Assembly (NCBI GenBank): GCA_040222015.1
Contig: JAVJWO010000206.1
Location: 1-21,126, forward strand
DNA length: 21,126 nt
Direction: 5' to 3'
DNA from: Coleofasciculus chthonoplastes F2-STO-03
Lineage (GTDB): Bacteria > Cyanobacteriota > Cyanobacteriia > Cyanobacteriales > Coleofasciculaceae
Part shown: positions 6,116-16,854 of the stretch, one piece after another
Numbering within the stretch: the first letter of the stretch is position 1
How the letters are laid out: the number at the start of each line of letters is the position of its first letter
Translations under genes and position numbers: made by a program
The notes under the pieces: generated by a model
Databases searched by the model: none
Seen by the model: the letters and a program-made list of their open reading frames with translations, nothing else
Told to the model about the DNA's origin: nothing

Positions 6116-6574
6116 TTAGCTACTCCGCTCAATTTTTTTAAACAGTCTCAAAATCAGTAAAATAAATAGAGCAGAAATTAAACTCAAACCCCATAATCCA
6201 CACCCTGCCGCCACTCCCAACCCTGATGACACCCAAATCGCCGCCGCCGTAGTCAGTCCCCGAATTCTGTATCCTTGTCGCTGCGGCTGAGATTCTTGTA
6301 CGATCACTCCTGCACCTAAAAATCCTACGCCACCGATAATGCCTTGAATCACGCGAGGAAGTGCATCGGCGCTTTGTTCAGCAACACCAATTAATATGGG
6401 TATCAGCGTAAAAAACGCCGAACCAAAGCTAACTAAAATATGGGTTCTCAACCCGGCTGGTTTATCTTTGATTTCCCGTTCAAAGCCGATAATTCCTCCC
6501 ACCAGTAAAGCCATACCGAGTCGGAGTCCTATCCCTAACCAATCATTTGGCGCAAGTATATAAATGTTTGACAT
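6116..6574 (-). CDS. MgtC/SapB family membrane protein
   Basis: IGFERE..KPAGLRTH, GVGFLGAGVI, GLTTAAAIW signature motifs. Confidence 0.92.
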   Translation of the reverse strand: MSNIYILAPNDWLGIGLRLGMALLVGGIIGFEREIKDKPAGLRTHILVSFGSAFFTLIPILIGVAEQSADALPRVIQGIIGGVGFLGAGVIVQESQPQRQGYRIRGLTTAAAIWVSSGLGVAAGCGLWGLSLISALFILLILRLFKKIERSS

Positions 6575-6612
6575 CAATTGACATCCTTTCCAACTAACTC
6601 TTTTGAGTATAG

Positions 6613-6726
<114 letters not shown>

Positions 6727-6847
6727 ATGTGCTGAAACCATTACAGTGCCGTGACTTTGAGGAATGCTTTTTCCAAAACGGGATGCTCCCAATCAAATAG
6801 CGATCGCCTAGCCAGCAGAAAATTTGTCACACATTTGTGTAGGAATG

Positions 6848-7333
6848 CTATTTGCAATGGTTAGCATTCCTAGTTCGAGTAGTAGTCACTACTGTACCCG
6901 TTCCTCTACGGGCATTGAAACCACGGCTTTTAAGTTCCGCTACAAATTTATTTGCTTTTGAGCGGTTGTAGAACGAGGCGACTATAATTTGATTCGCAGC
7001 ATTAGCGTAAGCATCACAGCAGTAATACTTGCGAATTCTTCGCAAATTTGAGTCAGTATAATTGACATAAACGCGATACCATTTATTTGTTCCACCTGCA
7101 CTGATATCGCCACAAAAACTCATGGGAAAATCAAATGCAGAAGTCTTTTTAATCGTATGAGTTTTAATATTTTCTTGAGGAGTAAATAATTGAAATAGTC
7201 CATAGCCTGTCACAATCAGAAAACTAGCAACCGTTGAAACTATCAACCTTTTTTTGCTAAAAAACTTAGGTCGTTGGTGTTTTTGCAAGGCGATAAGGAT
7301 CTTTCGCTTAATTTCTTCTTCGTCATTCCTCAT
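6848..7333 (-). CDS. Cassette-2 single-pass membrane protein: basic N-terminal peptide, TM helix, Cys-containing SPOR-like outer domain
   Basis: MRNDEEEIKRKILIALQKHQRPKFFSKKRL + hydrophobic helix; IIVASF.NRSKA.KF..ELKSRGF resembles SPOR-like folds; start overlaps the stop of the ATPase-tail duplicate by 11 nt. Confidence 0.75.
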   Translation of the reverse strand: MRNDEEEIKRKILIALQKHQRPKFFSKKRLIVSTVASFLIVTGYGLFQLFTPQENIKTHTIKKTSAFDFPMSFCGDISAGGTNKWYRVYVNYTDSNLRRIRKYYCCDAYANAANQIIVASFYNRSKANKFVAELKSRGFNARRGTGTVVTTTRTRNANHCK

Positions 7334-7629
7334 CACAATTTCCTTCTCTGGCTATAGCTGCTTTAACTTTTTCCGTGATTTGCTTGTTTTCTTTTGGAGT
7401 CAAACTATTGGATTCTGAAGCAACATTAATCCGGGATTTTTTGATACCTTCGATAGATTTGCGTAAATCGGTTAATTCGATCTGGTTTTTTCTCTGGCGT
7501 GCAACTCTCATCGCCGCATCAATCACGGCATTTTTAATATCGCGACCGCAAATATCATCCTCTTTAGCTAGTTCTTCAACTAACACATCCTTGGCTTTTG
7601 GCATTTTGTCTGGGAGATGTTTTCCCCAG
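7323..7629 (-). pseudogene. Orphan duplicate of the AAA+ ATPase C-terminal ~100 codons (lid and tail), no true start
   Basis: WGKHLPDKMPKAKDVLVEELAKEDDICGRDIKNAVIDAAMR matches the 8260-9396 product; 7516-7629 vs 8465-8578 = 108/114 identical. Confidence 0.92.
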
Positions 7630-7644
7630 TCACGCCAGTAGGGT

Positions 7645-7674
7645 GTAGGGTGCGTTAGCGAAGCGTAACGCACC
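7645..7674 (+). repeat. GTAG-family REP GTAGGGTGCGTTAGCGAAGCGTAACGCACC at the cassette junction
   Basis: Perfect 9-bp stem; copies at 2178-2207 and 14140-14191. Confidence 0.85.
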
Positions 7675-7747
7675 ATTACTGAACTAAGGTTTAAATGCCG
7701 AACATTGATTCAAAATCAGCCTTTTTTATAAAAATTTTATGTGTACA

Positions 7748-8270
7748 TCACTTGTCTTTACCAATACTAAAGTTAAATGTTTTTTTGTTCGCCCACAAGT
7801 CACCACAGTAGGCTGTAACTTTTCCTTTGTAATTTCCTCGATTGAAATGTCTGTTAGGCATATATAAAGTACGATTTTTATATATGCTATATTGATAGGT
7901 TGGTCGAAACCTTCTGCCAACTGACAATTGATTATCTGTTGTTTGATAACCAGGAATAGTGCTTCTTACCTTGCGACCGTTCTTATGATAAAAGTACACA
8001 GTAGTATTACATTTATGACCTTTCAAGTGTGCCGTCTTCAATTCAAAATTAATTCTTATGTTTTTACCAGAAGATCTGGCTAAATTATGTTGAATGTCGA
8101 GTTTGCTTATATTTATTCTAGGCTGGCTTTCCCAAATAAAAAAACCTACGATTGCCAAAGCTAAAAAACCCGAAAAAAAACAATCGATTTTTATCAAAAA
8201 ATTTTGTTTTTTGTTTTCTTTTTAGAGCCTGAAGATTTTTTTTACTAATTTCTTTTTCGTCATGTCTCAT
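7748..8270 (-). pseudogene. Cassette-1 single-pass membrane protein with beta-rich basic outer domain; +1 frameshift in a homopolymer tract near 8163-8180
   Basis: ATG at 8270 gives MRHDEKEISKKNLQALKRKQKTKFFDKNRL (homologous to the cassette-2 N-terminus) but stops at 8118; removing one base from A8 (8173-8180) or A6 (8163-8168) joins it to ORF 7748-8197. Confidence 0.8.
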
Positions 8271-9396
8271 TTTTTTCTATCCTCTCCTCTTTTTCAATAG
8301 CAGCTTTTATTTTTTCTCCAATTAAATTTTTCTCTTGATGTGTCAGTTCCTCAGAGCTGTCATCAGAATAAATATTAATACGAGATTTTTTTATTCCTTT
8401 GATCGATCTGATAAGATCAGTTAATTCAATCAGGGTTTTGCCTTTACGAGCTGCTCGCATTGCTGCATCAATCACGGCATTTTTAATATCGCGACCGCAA
8501 ACATCATCCACTTTAGCGAGTTCTTCAACTAACACATCCTTTGCTTTTGGCATTTTGTCTGGAAGATGTTTTTCCCAGATTTTTTGACGACAGATTTCAT
8601 CTGGCATGGGAAAGTTTACATGGCGCACTCGCGTTTCAAATGCTTTATCATAATTTTGAACTAGATTAGTAGAAAAAATGACAACTCCGCGAAATCGTTC
8701 TAAGCAGATAAGTAACTGACTCCGCATGGAGTTAATGGCTTGTTCAGAACCTTGAGTGACGTTGGTTAGTCGTTTAGAAAGTAAGGAATCGGCTTCATCG
8801 ATAAACAGCAAGGCGTTTTCTCGCTCGGCTGCCATGAAAATTGCCTCAACATTTTTGGGTCCTTCGCCATGATACATACTCTCAATTTGAGCATAACTGG
8901 CAACTAAGATAGGACGGTTAATTTTAGAGGCGATCGCGTGTGCTGCCAGGGTTTTTCCGGTTCCCGGTTTACCATGAAAATTGAGTGCTGTACGAGGAAA
9001 AGGTTCAATTTGCCGCAATCCCCACTCATCGAAAACTTTGGACTCTAACTGAATTAAGTCAACAGCCAAAAGCAAGTCTTCTTCTACTTCGTTGGGAACG
9101 ACTAATTGCTCGAAGGTAAACAAAGGCTTGCTATATTTGTATTTTTTTGCGCGTTCTTCAGGGGACAGATTGTAGTCAGATTTTTTATCCGCAGAATCGC
9201 TAGATGCGGCAGATAGTTTCTGACTGTTTTTGGGGATTTCAGATTCAGTCCCTACGATAACCTGGATAGTTTCAAGATTAGTTTCTTTCAGTAGCCTAGT
9301 GACTGCATTTAAAAGTCTGGAACGACAAACCGCAGCGACAGTTTCAGGGACTTGATTGGGAATACCATTTACCAAAAGAGAAGGAACTTCATTCAT
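8260..9396 (-). CDS. Classical-clade AAA+ ATPase (single module) with short N-terminal domain
   Basis: Walker A GKPGTGKT, pore loop SMYHGEG, Walker B LLFIDEAD, SRH FSTNL..NYDKAFETR. Confidence 0.95.
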   Translation of the reverse strand: MNEVPSLLVNGIPNQVPETVAAVCRSRLLNAVTRLLKETNLETIQVIVGTESEIPKNSQKLSAASSDSADKKSDYNLSPEERAKKYKYSKPLFTFEQLVVPNEVEEDLLLAVDLIQLESKVFDEWGLRQIEPFPRTALNFHGKPGTGKTLAAHAIASKINRPILVASYAQIESMYHGEGPKNVEAIFMAAERENALLFIDEADSLLSKRLTNVTQGSEQAINSMRSQLLICLERFRGVVIFSTNLVQNYDKAFETRVRHVNFPMPDEICRQKIWEKHLPDKMPKAKDVLVEELAKVDDVCGRDIKNAVIDAAMRAARKGKTLIELTDLIRSIKGIKKSRINIYSDDSSEELTHQEKNLIGEKIKAAIEKEERIEKNET

Positions 9397-9528
9397 ATAC
9401 GGTAAAACCTGTAAATAGGTTAATAATTTGGAATTATATTTCCAACGTACAACTTATTTTATGCCGTAACTCTGAGCCTCTAGTATTGTTGTGTAAACAG
9501 AGCCTGATTTAATCACTCTGGCAGTTTA

Positions 9529-9870
9529 TTACCAAAATGCTACTTCATTGAAACGGTGTGCATTTCGTATTTTTGAATCTACCGAATCTGCCTCAATACC
9601 TCTTGCATTATGAACTTCTTCAGTTTTTGTATTGAAAATTCCCTGAGCGATTTTATAATTTCCATCGTAAATCGCTTGTTTTACGGTAAACGCAAGATAT
9701 TCTCTATCTTTTAGGCTTCTGCGATCGTTTTCAACTATCAAATAAGCGAACTTTTTAAACCAACTTGCTAGTATCTCTAGAGTTAGGCAGAAAAAGTGAA
9801 GACCTACATAAATTCCGGCGTTAACACCCGCCCATACAGCAGCCCATAATAACAGTGATAATGGTTCCAT
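9529..9870 (-). CDS. Hypothetical protein: N-terminal hydrophobic segment plus one copy of the operon's ~80-aa domain
   Basis: RBS AGGAG upstream; LTLEILASWF...QGIFN...RGIEADSVD aligns by eye with the repeats of 9880-10614. Confidence 0.8.
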   Translation of the reverse strand: MEPLSLLLWAAVWAGVNAGIYVGLHFFCLTLEILASWFKKFAYLIVENDRRSLKDREYLAFTVKQAIYDGNYKIAQGIFNTKTEEVHNARGIEADSVDSKIRNAHRFNEVAFW

Positions 9871-9879
9871 TTTGTCTCC

Positions 9880-10614
9880 TTATTGCAAAATAATTAAATC
9901 TTTTTCGCCAAAAAATTCCCACAATTCTTCGTCCAATTGCCTAGCCACTAACTGGCGACCATAGGGCTTACCCGCCGAATCACAAACTGGCTCATTATTT
10001 TTATCTATAAACATTTGGGTAAGATGATATCCTTGAGGATGAGGTTTACGCAGTAAAGCTACTCTTTTTATCCTTGGATCGTTTGGGCGAGCGCTGACAA
10101 AATACTTGATAGCTTCCTCATAGGTCATCACTGGTATAACTTGTGGTAATTTCAGAAGGTCACGCAACAATTCTCCAGATTGGGCGAATACATCCTGATT
10201 AAAGCCATCGCTAGGGAAATTTTTCTCTGTCAATTTAAAAACAATTAAATTCCGATCAGCGAAATGGTCTATCAGTTTTTTGTCTAAACTTTTCGCAACT
10301 AGCTGGCGACCATAGGGAGTACCATCTTTACGACAAACAATTCGATTATGTTGATCTAAAAATACCTGCCCTAAGATTTGAACTTCAACGTCTTCTTGAC
10401 GAATAATTACACCCTTGTGAACAGTAAAGTCGGCTGGGCGATCGGTCTCAAAAAAAGTTATCACCTGATCAAACGTTACGAGCGTCTGGACTTCAGGTAT
10501 TGCCAGAATTTGCGGTGACCATTTATTAAACTGAGCAACTATTCGCTGTTTATCCTCGTGAGTTATTTTTTTATCTCGATCAGAGGAGTCCTTTAAAAAC
10601 CAGTTCACAATCAT
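9880..10614 (-). CDS. Hypothetical protein with two tandem ~85-aa repeats
   Basis: TFDQVITFF...QVFLD..N..VC...G.PYGRQLVAKSLD..L...F....LI vs TYEEAIKYF...QMFID..N..VC...G.PYGRQLVARQLD..L...F....LI. Confidence 0.85.
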   Translation of the reverse strand: MIVNWFLKDSSDRDKKITHEDKQRIVAQFNKWSPQILAIPEVQTLVTFDQVITFFETDRPADFTVHKGVIIRQEDVEVQILGQVFLDQHNRIVCRKDGTPYGRQLVAKSLDKKLIDHFADRNLIVFKLTEKNFPSDGFNQDVFAQSGELLRDLLKLPQVIPVMTYEEAIKYFVSARPNDPRIKRVALLRKPHPQGYHLTQMFIDKNNEPVCDSAGKPYGRQLVARQLDEELWEFFGEKDLIILQ

Positions 10615-10930: not shown

Positions 10931-12316
10931 ATGCTAGACTCAGATCCACTTTCAGCTATGGACGTTCAAGAAGTCTTAAACTGGACGGATAACTTGGTGT
11001 TCTCGAAAACGGGAAAACATCTCGACTCCCTGCAAAAGGCTGTAGTTGAGGGGACTTGGCAGCGGCAAAAGTATCCAGAAATTGCTAGGAATTGCCACCG
11101 TACTCATGATCGCATCAAACAAGTGGCAAGAGAATTATGGCAGTTAATATCGGCAGAGCTGGGAGAAGATGTTAGGCAATCTAATTTTCGAGCTATTTTA
11201 GAACAAGTAGAATTTTCCAATATCTCAAATTTTAGTTCTGACTATGTGCAAATCGTGGGTGATATTAATTTCTGTAACGAACATTGCCCTTATCCCAAAG
11301 CAAAAAAACACCGATCGCGCACCTCAAACGCCACCAGTACCAAACCCGAAAAACGCCACGATTTAACCGAAGCACCGGAGTGCGATCGCGTCTACAACTG
11401 CACCACAGAACTAACCACCCTTAAACAGTGGATACTCCAAGAAAAAATCCGCATCGTCACTATCTTTGGATTGCCTGGTATCGGCAAAACCACCCTCGCC
11501 AGAGAACTGGTAGAACAAATTAAAGATAACTTCGATTATATCCTCTGGCGCAACTGTACTGAAACTCTGACACTGAAATCTCTAAAAACCAACTTAATTC
11601 AGTTCTTTTATAAAGATAGAGAAACCCAACTCCCCTCCCTAATCGACTATCTGCGATCGCATCCCTGTCTGATCATCCTCGACGACTTCCAAGAACTATT
11701 TACCCCTGGAGAATTAGCAGGTACATATCTGCCAGACTGTGAAAATTACAGCAAATTCTGGCAACAAATGGCGCGAACACCTCACCACAGTTGCTTCCTC
11801 CTCATGAGTTGGGAAAAACCCACAGAAATTGCCATCTTAGAAGGAGAAAATCGCCACTGTCGCACGTTACAACTTGATGGTTTGGCAGAGTCTGCGTCGG
11901 AACTATTGACGAATAAAGGGTTAACCGATGAGGATAAATGGTTGGAACTTATCGAACGTTACAGTGGCAATCCCTCCTGGTTAACTATAATTGCCTCTAC
12001 TATCCAAGATTTATTTAACGGTAGCGTTGATCGCTTCTTATCCTATCCCAGTCTATTTCTGGGAGACTTAGAACCCAGATTGCAGGCACAATATCAACGG
12101 TTATCTGAATCTGAGAAAATGGTAACCCTGTGGTTGGCGAACCAAAACGCAGTAGACATTTCCGATAAACCTGCCGAGTTAGCGTTGTCTGATTCCGATT
12201 TTTTGAAGGCGGTACAGTCTTTGAGAAAACGGGGTTTAATTGAAAAAATAACCAATAACGGCTCATCGCTGTTCGCCGTTCAAGCTTTAGTTAAAGCCTA
12301 TGTGAAAGAGAGATAG
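10931..12316 (+). CDS. STAND NTPase (NB-ARC) with cyanobacterial N-terminal HTH domain and C-terminal winged helix, no WD40/TPR sensor (start may be 10958)
   Basis: KTGKHLDSLQKAVVEGTW...YPEIA HTH; GLPGIGKTTLA; LIILDD; LLMSWE; YSGNP (GxP); ends at SLRKRGLIE wHTH. Confidence 0.9.
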   Translation: MLDSDPLSAMDVQEVLNWTDNLVFSKTGKHLDSLQKAVVEGTWQRQKYPEIARNCHRTHDRIKQVARELWQLISAELGEDVRQSNFRAILEQVEFSNISNFSSDYVQIVGDINFCNEHCPYPKAKKHRSRTSNATSTKPEKRHDLTEAPECDRVYNCTTELTTLKQWILQEKIRIVTIFGLPGIGKTTLARELVEQIKDNFDYILWRNCTETLTLKSLKTNLIQFFYKDRETQLPSLIDYLRSHPCLIILDDFQELFTPGELAGTYLPDCENYSKFWQQMARTPHHSCFLLMSWEKPTEIAILEGENRHCRTLQLDGLAESASELLTNKGLTDEDKWLELIERYSGNPSWLTIIASTIQDLFNGSVDRFLSYPSLFLGDLEPRLQAQYQRLSESEKMVTLWLANQNAVDISDKPAELALSDSDFLKAVQSLRKRGLIEKITNNGSSLFAVQALVKAYVKER

Positions 12317-15738: not shown

Positions 15739-15754
15739 CGTTAGTTCTCCAAAA

Positions 15755-15910
15755 TGGGGGAGCTGGGGGAGCTGGGGAAGCTGGGGAAGCTGGGGAAGCT
15801 GGGGGAGATGAGTAAGTTAACTCAAAACTCTACCTTGCCTATTGCCTATTGCCTATTGCCTATTGCCTGTTCCCTGACGAATGACAAATGACGAATGACA
15901 AATGACAAAT
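15755..15910 (+). repeat. Three adjacent short tandem repeat arrays: GGGGAAGCT 9-mers, TTGCCTA heptamers, TGACAAA/TGACGAA heptamers
   Basis: Read directly (15755-15810, 15835-15874, 15875-15910). Confidence 0.9.
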
Positions 15911-16854
15911 TACCGATCAACAACATTCAAACGTCGAGTAATCATCGTCATCCCATCACCGCGAATCAAAACGGCTGAAATCCAGCGATCCTGGGGAGTT
16001 AAGGGCGCTCGCCCCACTTTAAAAATCCCGCCTGCGGAGAGTAAATCCAATTCAAAGTCACTGGGTTGGTTGTAGCGATCGCGACTAATCGGTTCTTCTA
16101 AGGCTGTTCCCAATAGTAGGTTATCTCCCAGGGGTTCTTGGACAATCGCATCAAAGTTAAACGACTGACCAATACGCACCTGTTCCGGTAAAATCACTTG
16201 CAGGTTGGGAGGATTGACGCCAGACGTCAGTTGGGAACGTTCTGCCAAAATTTCCGATGAGACGATTTTTTGATTTTCGTAACGTTGGCGCGATCGCAAC
16301 GTGGATTCGAGTTTGATCATTGTACCGTTGTTGGGCTGAGTTCCGGTTACAGTGGTGACTGTCTCCGCCACAATCCCATCACCTTGATTGTCCCAAGACT
16401 GTAACTCGGTGCGATACATCAATTGAGGATAGCGTTCCCACAGTTGCTTCAGGGCTTCCTCCATCTGAGCGTGAGTCAAACCGTCAGAATGTTTGAAATC
16501 CTGGCTATAGAACTGCATCACACCCTCCACATCCCGGCGATTTGCCGCTGCATCGATTTGCGCCAAGAGTTCTTTTAGCTGAGGTGGGGCGGTTGCGGGA
16601 TCTTCGGCTTTTGTCGCCGTTGCCCATCCCACAGTTAAACCCACCGCGAAGAACAAAATCATAGACCCATTCAGGGAATACGCCTTGGTTTTCGCACTCA
16701 AAGAACCTGACTTTTCACACCCTGGGGAGAAGTCAAAGCCTCTCTCCTTGAAGGATAGAGGTTTGGAGAGAGGTTTTCTATATCCCGTGAAAAGTACGCT
16801 CAAGGAACGGGAAACGCGACGAAATAAATTGACCGGATTGTGCATTAGGGGCAT
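15910..16854 (-). CDS. Secreted NTF2/SnoaL-like domain protein (start uncertain: 16854, 16845 or 16662)
   Basis: Signal-like MILFFAVGLTVGWATATKA; LLAQIDAAANRRDVEGVMQFYS.DF.H.DG NTF2-like helix; divergent from murG. Confidence 0.8.
   Translation of the reverse strand: MPLMHNPVNLFRRVSRSLSVLFTGYRKPLSKPLSFKERGFDFSPGCEKSGSLSAKTKAYSLNGSMILFFAVGLTVGWATATKAEDPATAPPQLKELLAQIDAAANRRDVEGVMQFYSQDFKHSDGLTHAQMEEALKQLWERYPQLMYRTELQSWDNQGDGIVAETVTTVTGTQPNNGTMIKLESTLRSRQRYENQKIVSSEILAERSQLTSGVNPPNLQVILPEQVRIGQSFNFDAIVQEPLGDNLLLGTALEEPISRDRYNQPSDFELDLLSAGGIFKVGRAPLTPQDRWISAVLIRGDGMTMITRRLNVVDR
16710..16795. mobile_element. 86-bp MITE-like palindromic element with TIRs ACTTTTCAC/GTGAAAAGT
   Basis: 9-bp terminal inverted repeats; body is a near-identical inverted copy of 10-83. 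Confidence 0.75.

Follow-up and report, generated by a model that had tools for sequence, protein, structure and literature searches.

The window, a stretch of 21,126 nucleotides from contig JAVJWO010000206.1 of Coleofasciculus chthonoplastes F2-STO-03, contains the gene for an AAA+ ATPase, two different membrane-protein genes downstream of it, here called partner 1 and partner 2, and between these a duplicate of the ATPase gene's 3' end, here called the orphan. An ATPase end together with the partner gene behind it is referred to as a cassette, and a preliminary description of the sequence had taken the locus for an array in which the ATPase tail and a coupled membrane protein are exchanged as a unit. 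The features of the locus are given below, where L stands for related loci, X for metagenomic runs, P for proteins and G for genomes.

8260–9396, minus strand: AAA+ ATPase gene, 378 aa, classical AAA+ clade (Pfam AAA, E 7.6e-24; AAA_lid_3); mosaic of a core near that of L021/L103 and tail 1
8465–8578, minus strand: recombination handle, copy in the active gene, encoding the lid block around CGRDIKNAVIDAA, after which the strong conservation of the ATPase ends (108/114 against 7516–7629)
8260–8464, minus strand: tail 1, variable ATPase C-terminus of about 67 codons (grouping with L028, 96/93, and L023)
7748–8270, minus strand: partner 1, gene for a single-pass membrane protein whose outer domain is predicted to be Ig/FnIII-like; frameshifted here (intact relatives of 171–176 aa)
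8173–8180, plus strand: run of eight A, which is a run of seven in X2, X3 and X5 with an open frame there (run comparison)
7678–7747, no strand: spacer 3' of partner 1, found also behind the decayed partner 1 copy of L103 (93% over 92 nt against L103 2327–2418)
7630–7674, plus strand: GTAG-type repetitive extragenic palindrome (REP), hairpin at 7645–7674 plus 5' flank (155 genome copies at up to 4 mismatches)
7323–7629, minus strand: orphan ATPase end, made up of a handle (7516–7629) and tail 2, 101 codons without the ATPase core (tree grouping with L021 and L103, 97/92)
6848–7333, minus strand: partner 2, intact gene for a single-pass membrane protein of 161 aa whose SPOR-like outer domain contains Cys (Pfam SPOR)

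The duplicated ATPase end and the two partners

The repeat reported in the preliminary description was confirmed in the sequence, with 108 of 114 positions identical between 7516–7629 and 8465–8578 and a direct offset of 949 bp, and at this offset the similarity reaches 216 nt at 83%. The orphan frame corresponds to the last 101 ATPase codons (7628–7323, minus strand). In both cassettes the start codon of the partner and the stop codon of the preceding ATPase end share the 11-nt overlap described before (8260–8270 and 7323–7333), and both N-terminal peptides of the partners read as quoted there, their first four residues being forced by this overlap. Tails 1 and 2 consist of homologous lid and helical ends that are 69–71% identical. 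Residues C300, G301, R302, I304, N306 and A312 of the handle block are invariant among 45 ATPase homologues; the handle coincides with the last invariant block of the ATPase, and a homologous anchor for a variable gene further downstream would be expected to stop at such a block. As had been predicted, a crossover in the handle would fuse cassette 2 in frame to the ATPase, and the computed product is an open frame of 374 aa with no internal stop, which is the length of the proteins P0003–P0010, all of which terminate in tail 2. The lid block of the window's orphan contains a V-to-E change, and in X2 the orphan tail is frameshifted by one base missing at 7382. Comparison of the ATPase with models of PAN, FtsH, CDC48 and IteA gave weak similarity, in all cases far under the cut-off.

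The duplication is not an artefact of assembly, as contigs of X2, X3 and X5, which are metagenomes from three different studies, cover both cassettes and the orphan junction; X1, possibly the source sample, was left uncounted. The contigs of X5 correspond to 6400–7666, running through the orphan start into the REP, and to 7683–9279. No further copy of either partner was found in the 7.72-Mb genome. A 117-aa open reading frame from the ATG at 7676, considered as an orphan frame, was rejected as a product of chance: it begins within the REP and depends on a 7-bp duplication that is missing in X2, X3 and X5.

The partner family was gathered with a profile of the N-terminal peptide and transmembrane (TM) helix, which matched 37 proteins, 23 of SPOR-type and 14 of Ig-type; an exhaustive search (nine matches, two of them spurious repeat proteins) revealed a third outer-domain type, P0166, and partners of this type are intact in all three members of their cluster. 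Peptide and TM helix are common to the three types, so that the expectation of different outer domains behind one N-terminal peptide was borne out. All partner types tested have one TM helix preceded by 7–13 K/R residues (in partner 2 the helix is at 31–49, with 10 K/R upstream), and from this positive-inside charge the N-terminal helix is predicted to be cytoplasmic and the outer domain periplasmic. The SPOR-like domain claimed for cassette 2 was recovered by Pfam in partner 2 (E 3.4e-05), where the score of 24.5 bits exceeds the PF05036 gathering score of 21 in a partial match to model positions 7–38 of 76. Among the 23 SPOR-type members, 15 match Pfam SPOR at E up to 0.1, and no sequence match for this family was found in the PDB. 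SPOR domains bind peptidoglycan, and partner 2 may do the same. For the Ig-type, a structural model of P0154, whose predicted local distance difference test score (pLDDT) is 50, could be superposed on FnIII/Ig-like sandwiches (best Z 8.6, rmsd 2.6, 93 residues), and the Ig-type assignment of the partner 1 outer domain from such models is of low confidence. In P0146, the Ig-type outer domain is present twice. Partner 2 appears to be under purifying selection, the ratio of nonsynonymous to synonymous divergence (dN/dS) to the L021 partner being 0.17, and as a whole gene it may be expressed without rearrangement. RNA runs share just 0.12–0.16 of the sequence words. Searches of the partners gave no consistent match to an immunity family, and there was no one-to-one pairing of partners with tails.

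Partner 1 is broken in the window strain, a fact that the preliminary description did not mention. The frame from the ATG at 8270 stops after 50 aa because of one extra A in the run at 8173–8180, and the outer domain lies in another frame (7748–8197). The truncated product ends before a full TM helix, its best 19-residue hydropathy being 0.54 versus 1.99 in the intact P0154. The extra A is present in X1 and missing in X2, X3 and X5, and database entries of 149 aa and 50 aa match the two broken pieces. A single-base slip in the SPOR-type partner P0165 was judged from its altered end, and phase variation of the partners by such slips is possible.

Arrangements and alleles in relatives

The 161 related loci (L021 and L023–L182) represent the best 80 of 203 genome matches and the best 80 of at least 435 metagenome matches; L022, whose ATPase is distant, was excluded from all counts. 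Among 40 related genomes, the sole close orthologue is in G002 (86%). A partner is present in 16 of the 161 loci, 11 of SPOR-type and 5 of Ig-type (L104 repeating L028), and these loci are cyanobacterial wherever named; in the remaining 145 no partner is visible, some of the contigs being too short to tell. The closest named ATPase homologues come from Coleofasciculus, Phormidium, Arthrospira and Okeania. Viral contigs contain distant AAA ATPases only (23 loci, best-segment identity 28–40%), and one plasmid record matches at E up to 1e-60.

ARRANGEMENTS found at the locus are the following, (A) to (F). In (A), represented by G002/L021, the core is followed by tail 2, a SPOR-type partner and nothing behind it, so that the single-cassette product of the predicted crossover does exist. 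Order (B) is that of the window and also of X2, X3 and X5. Locus L103 has the mirror order (C), in which an active tail 2 and SPOR partner are followed by a REP, by 29 terminal codons of tail 1 (95.6% over 90 nt) and by an Ig-type partner in which a frameshift, an insertion and the loss of about 300 bp mark decay. Chimeric partners (D) were detected in P0123, P0158 and P0159, where the first 28 aa of the SPOR-type (26/28) are joined to an Ig-type body (86–88%); matching contig sizes suggest that all three go with tail-2 ATPases and that P0123 also lies beside an orphan tail 2 and a SPOR partner. In (E), P0170 displays the REP-derived junction peptide of the window and then tail 1 (94/97), and in (F), L028/L104, an Ig-type partner is followed by a few codons resembling the ATPase end and by a third-type partner. 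Orphan modules with homology to the core are those of the window, L103, P0170, P0172 and P0173, and they include orphans of both tail types, in agreement with the expectation that relatives would carry more than one. The tails of P0005 and of the orphan P0173, which are linked by matching contig sizes, differ, which fits an outside donor.

A reading of the window as a one-off insertion was dropped, as the first profile screens, which had returned the window and L074 only, had overlooked the 29-codon remnant of L103. L074 was not counted as an orphan since its ATPase is split by about 370 bp of inserted DNA, accompanied by a 33-bp duplication (L074:823-2059), nor was L147, which has a 62-nt end duplication. 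In P0180, the N-terminus of an S protein (see below) is fused to an ATPase tail, likely a deletion product. At the other end of the ATPase, the N-terminal domain of 50 residues is duplicated at L053:4400-4567, L116:4351-4497 and L119:4578-4724, hinting at a small interaction module.

Trees were calculated from 30–31 rows chosen among cyanobacterial loci. In the tree of the tails, L021 and L103 are the neighbours of the orphan, and tail 1 groups with L028 and L023, away from L021/L103; the core tree conflicts with this, as it places the window ATPase outside the clade of four Ig-type loci. The orphan is 91% identical in DNA to the ATPase end of L021. Synonymous divergence (dS) of the window core is 0.14–0.16 to L021/L103 versus 0.97 to L028, whereas tail 1 shows a dS of 0.68 to L028 and is saturated to L021. 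With a core near L021/L103 and a tail 1 nearer L028, two old alleles ride on one core, and by trees and dS profile alike the core and the variable end are evolutionarily decoupled. The idea that cassette 1 had recently been imported from the organism of L028 was rejected, since the dS of 0.68–0.71 for tail 1 and partner 1 speaks for old alleles.

The preliminary description had also suggested that the ATPase tail has a function within the swapped module and possibly co-evolves with the partner, and neither suggestion was supported. Partners occur in just 16 of the 161 loci and tails are not matched to outer domains: SPOR-type partners follow two distant tail clades, and the clade with tails 1 and 2 includes both partner types. 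Complex prediction for the ATPase with residues 1–50 of the partner gave a score of 0.00, which is non-informative either way. The tail is probably a passenger, because partnerless relatives prevail, similar tails carry different outer domains and orphan tails are rare (2/141).

Origin of the array

From these comparisons, the array probably originated by homology-anchored 3' displacement between strains, similar to that of Rhs loci. Incoming DNA would recombine into the conserved ATPase gene and displace the resident end downstream. Each event would end on the left in homologous recombination within the core or the lid block of the ATPase and on the right in an illegitimate join; this join lies within a few bases of a GTAG REP at two loci, and in one lineage it presumably fell on microhomology within the shared N-terminal peptide. 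The block encoding the lid would serve as anchor, the tail would travel as a passenger between the anchor and the variable gene, and the likely selected feature would be the outer domain of the partner, be it SPOR-like, Ig-like or of the third type. As displaced partners retain their own start codon, the array would be co-expressed and not silent, and single-base slips would turn individual partners off. An orphan without core marks the displaced copy, which is tail 2 in the window and tail 1 in L103, and we infer that displacement ran both ways.

The 5' edge of the orphan abuts a genome-wide palindromic repeat that had gone unmentioned before. The orphan junction (7629/7630) is 8 nt from the first GTAG (7638), bases 7638–7644 (7) are missing in X2, X3 and X5, and the REP consists of GTAG followed by a hairpin; of its genome copies, 142 with full flanks begin with GTAG, and the 5' flank of the window REP matches a repeat subfamily. 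The junctions of the window and of L103 lie 4–8 nt from GTAG in copies of the same REP family that have different flanks. A random point would fall within 20 nt of any GTAG hairpin in about 0.4% of cases, the true odds being higher since REPs crowd operon ends. Genome-wide there are about 1,690 GTAG hairpins versus 479 in a reversed control. A Y1 transposase gene (G000:C207:2283-2834; PF01797 over cut-off) is flanked by five REPs of the window family, and this gene and those at C28:52250-52612, C134:44284-44541 and C157:25491-25742 of G000 are each bordered by a GTAG REP family of their own, so that the G000 genome carries multiple REPtron-like units. REP-associated tyrosine transposases (RAYTs) are reported to cleave at REPs (PMC3733652), and a role of REP/RAYT in forming the cassette junctions may be inferred.

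A different origin, which we regard as unlikely, would be a programmed switch within one genome, in which the orphan serves as a silent store, and tail 2 and its partner reach the ATPase as a matched pair through a crossover between the 114-bp handles. The handles are 95% identical, the 374-aa crossover ATPase is in frame and 90% identical to P0010, P0170 has tail 1 behind the same REP junction, and the L103 insert ends at the start of the window's REP like a circular permutation of the 949-bp unit; moreover, with partner 1 broken in the window strain, a switch could matter. However, a joint skipping the 949 bp was absent from all four runs, where contigs, which drop rare variants, were inspected, and the arrangement is stable over strains with 2–6% differences. 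In X2 a frameshift affects the orphan tail, partner 2 starts from a codon of its own, there is no matching of tails with outer domains, and 145 of the 161 related loci, on contigs that are in part too short, show no partner. The silent reservoir switched in one genome that the preliminary description had envisaged is likewise disfavoured by displaced partners that are whole genes and by orphans in only 2 of 141 downstream regions.

The extra cassettes might instead be neutral debris, that is, chance insertions in one repeat-rich genus that decay and have no repertoire function. We consider this quite unlikely, although orphan tails are as rare as stated, frameshifts affect partner 1 (window, X1), the SPOR-type P0165 and the L103 remnant, and GTAG hairpins are as abundant as given above. 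At least four distinct rearrangements have occurred at one locus in two lineages, the displaced partner 2 is intact with a dN/dS of 0.17, both alleles are old (tail dS saturated) yet persist on one core, and the third-type partner is intact in 3/3 cluster members. A further reading, to which the direct orientation and common N-terminal peptide might point, is that the ATPase end and partner were duplicated in tandem inside the lineage and later diverged. This is highly improbable and largely refuted by the trees, in which the orphan is closer to L021/L103 and tail 1 to L028/L023 than they are to each other, and by outer domains that are unrelated folds.

Several observations weigh against displacement between strains as proposed here. 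No event was directly observed, and P0170 is equally explicable by recombination within one genome. As to generality, of the 141 downstream regions covered by the sensitive screen, which is blind to remnants of a few codons such as that of L028, just those of the window and L103 contain an orphan tail. Twelve related loci bear a partner and extend for 900 nt or more downstream; a second cassette occurs in three of them, two of which are the same locus. The dN/dS of the orphan tail is 0.19–0.24 versus 0.28 between active copies, so relaxed selection is not clear. REPs cluster at operon ends and could postdate the join. The putative linkages P0123/P0005/P0173/P0189, P0158/P0004/P0195, P0160/P0172/P0185 and P0170/P0163 come from proteins whose longest contigs are equal in length, and the function suggested below is based on gene neighbourhood.

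Host operon, known systems and significance

Upstream of the ATPase gene lie the following genes.

9529–9870, minus strand: small S-domain gene coding for 113 aa with a hydrophobic N-terminus (unmatched in Pfam, NCBIfam and PADLOC; model pLDDT 84.5)
9880–10614, minus strand: S-domain gene, 244 aa, two internal repeats (self-match; same cluster as the 113-aa gene)
10931–12316, plus strand: divergent STAND/NB-ARC NTPase gene, 461 aa (Pfam NB-ARC, E 9.8e-11)

One to six S-domain genes in tandem precede or flank the ATPase gene in 88 of 162 loci from several phyla, and the sequence cluster of the STAND gene is found in 37 of 162, mostly upstream and divergent; going by gene order, the conserved core of the operon is S-domain genes next to the ATPase and not the partner. 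The S-domain family has no match in Pfam, NCBIfam or PADLOC. The S-domain model is a confident one, but a fold search gave nothing clear in the PDB, with a best Z of 4.2, and Foldseek no match at E up to 0.001, results that do not in themselves make it a new fold, and matches in the ESM Atlas are to unnamed clusters only. In some loci the S-domain is fused to Hsp70 or Hsp70-TPR, and one plasmid combines five small genes, the ATPase and a DUF87 gene. S genes diverge fast, with a dS of 0.42–0.83 versus 0.21 for the STAND gene. In X3, 341 bp within 9481–9823 of the window are skipped, with loss of most of the 113-aa S gene. A sister operon ends in a close SPOR-type homologue with no such ATPase nearby (L236:2696-4761, L237:2690-4609, L238:2390-4462, L239:2562-5032); in its other genes there is a short motif with weak resemblance to the N-domain of the ATPase (E about 0.001), while its gene in L239 begins like the 244-aa S protein.

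On the other side of the locus, 6625–6790 resembles a remnant of the small gene located 3' of the L028 partners (82% over 106 nt) and is situated between partner 2 and an MgtC-family gene (6116–6577). Short intergenic tandem repeats with 7-nt and 9-nt units occur at 207–257, 2079–2164, 15746–15816 and 15875–15913. A scan for regulatory sites was without informative signal (9 promoter-like sites versus 12.3 expected; 0 terminators).

The locus works like a displacement array of the Rhs or type VI secretion system (T6SS) kind, yet it is not a polymorphic toxin locus. As in Rhs and contact-dependent inhibition (CDI) systems, a conserved core is decoupled from a variable 3' end, and the model of rhs C-terminal displacement is akin to the one favoured here (PMC2935791); as in these and in Maf loci, orphan 3' modules keep homology to the core. 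Unlike in Rhs, CDI and Maf loci, the core is a cytoplasmic AAA+ ATPase with neither a secreted carrier (YD repeats, FHA, MafB N-domain) nor a fused toxin, no array exceeded two partners, and three outer-domain types in all were found (37 profile proteins plus 9 matches). In contrast to Rhs and CDI, the variable unit is a separate, complete membrane-protein gene, and no toxin, immunity gene or toxin-immunity pair was identified at the locus. For the T6SS effector-immunity arrays of Vibrio cholerae, homology-facilitated illegitimate recombination with an upstream anchor has been proposed, and there too a complete downstream gene is kept and shifted back (PMC5361080); the gene retained here is a predicted sensor or receptor and not a known immunity protein, and the junctions adjoin REPs. 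GTAG REP/RAYT systems (REPtrons) share GTAG plus hairpin, high copy number and a Y1 tyrosine transposase gene between the same repeats (PMC3733652), whereas a part in forming cassette junctions would be putative at this locus. With the NTP-dependent conflict systems of multicellular bacteria, it has in common a chaperone-type AAA+ ATPase, STAND, Hsp70-TPR or DUF87 neighbours in some loci and variable paralog arrays (PMC7159879, PMC8195603), but no MoxR-vWA pair or S8 protease was identified among the conserved neighbours, and the S domain matches no family. As to IetAS, the ATPase scored 80.1 bits against an IteA cut-off of 510 and the co-oriented neighbours had no PADLOC match. No description of the operon or the arrangement was found in mainly open-access literature; the supplements of PMC7159879 and PMC8195603 may list the operon.

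Classical AAA+ ATPases remodel proteins. Tentatively, the gene neighbours together with the fast divergence and the loss of S genes suggest a system for conflict or for envelope damage, whose protein-remodelling module of S-domain proteins and AAA+ ATPase would take its input from interchangeable envelope sensors. The partner would be a facultative sensor on the outside, and the S/AAA+ module would read its cytoplasmic helix. A wider reading, which seems doubtful, would be a widespread and so far undescribed conflict or envelope-surveillance system in which tandem S-domain proteins with a novel fold and an AAA+ unfoldase stand under a STAND regulator, and which in mat cyanobacteria would carry an exchangeable repertoire of membrane receptors shaped by balancing selection, shuffling at the lid handle, junctions made by REP/RAYT and switching by homopolymer slippage.

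Displacement between strains at this locus would extend Rhs-style 3' displacement, tied in the papers considered to toxins and immunity genes, to the operon of a cytoplasmic ATPase with a variable membrane protein, and the natural single, double, mirror-order and chimeric versions make both the displacement model and the role of the REPs testable. The larger prize is the host operon with an S-domain family that has no counterpart in the libraries searched, and this family may be a more novel finding than the swappable partners.

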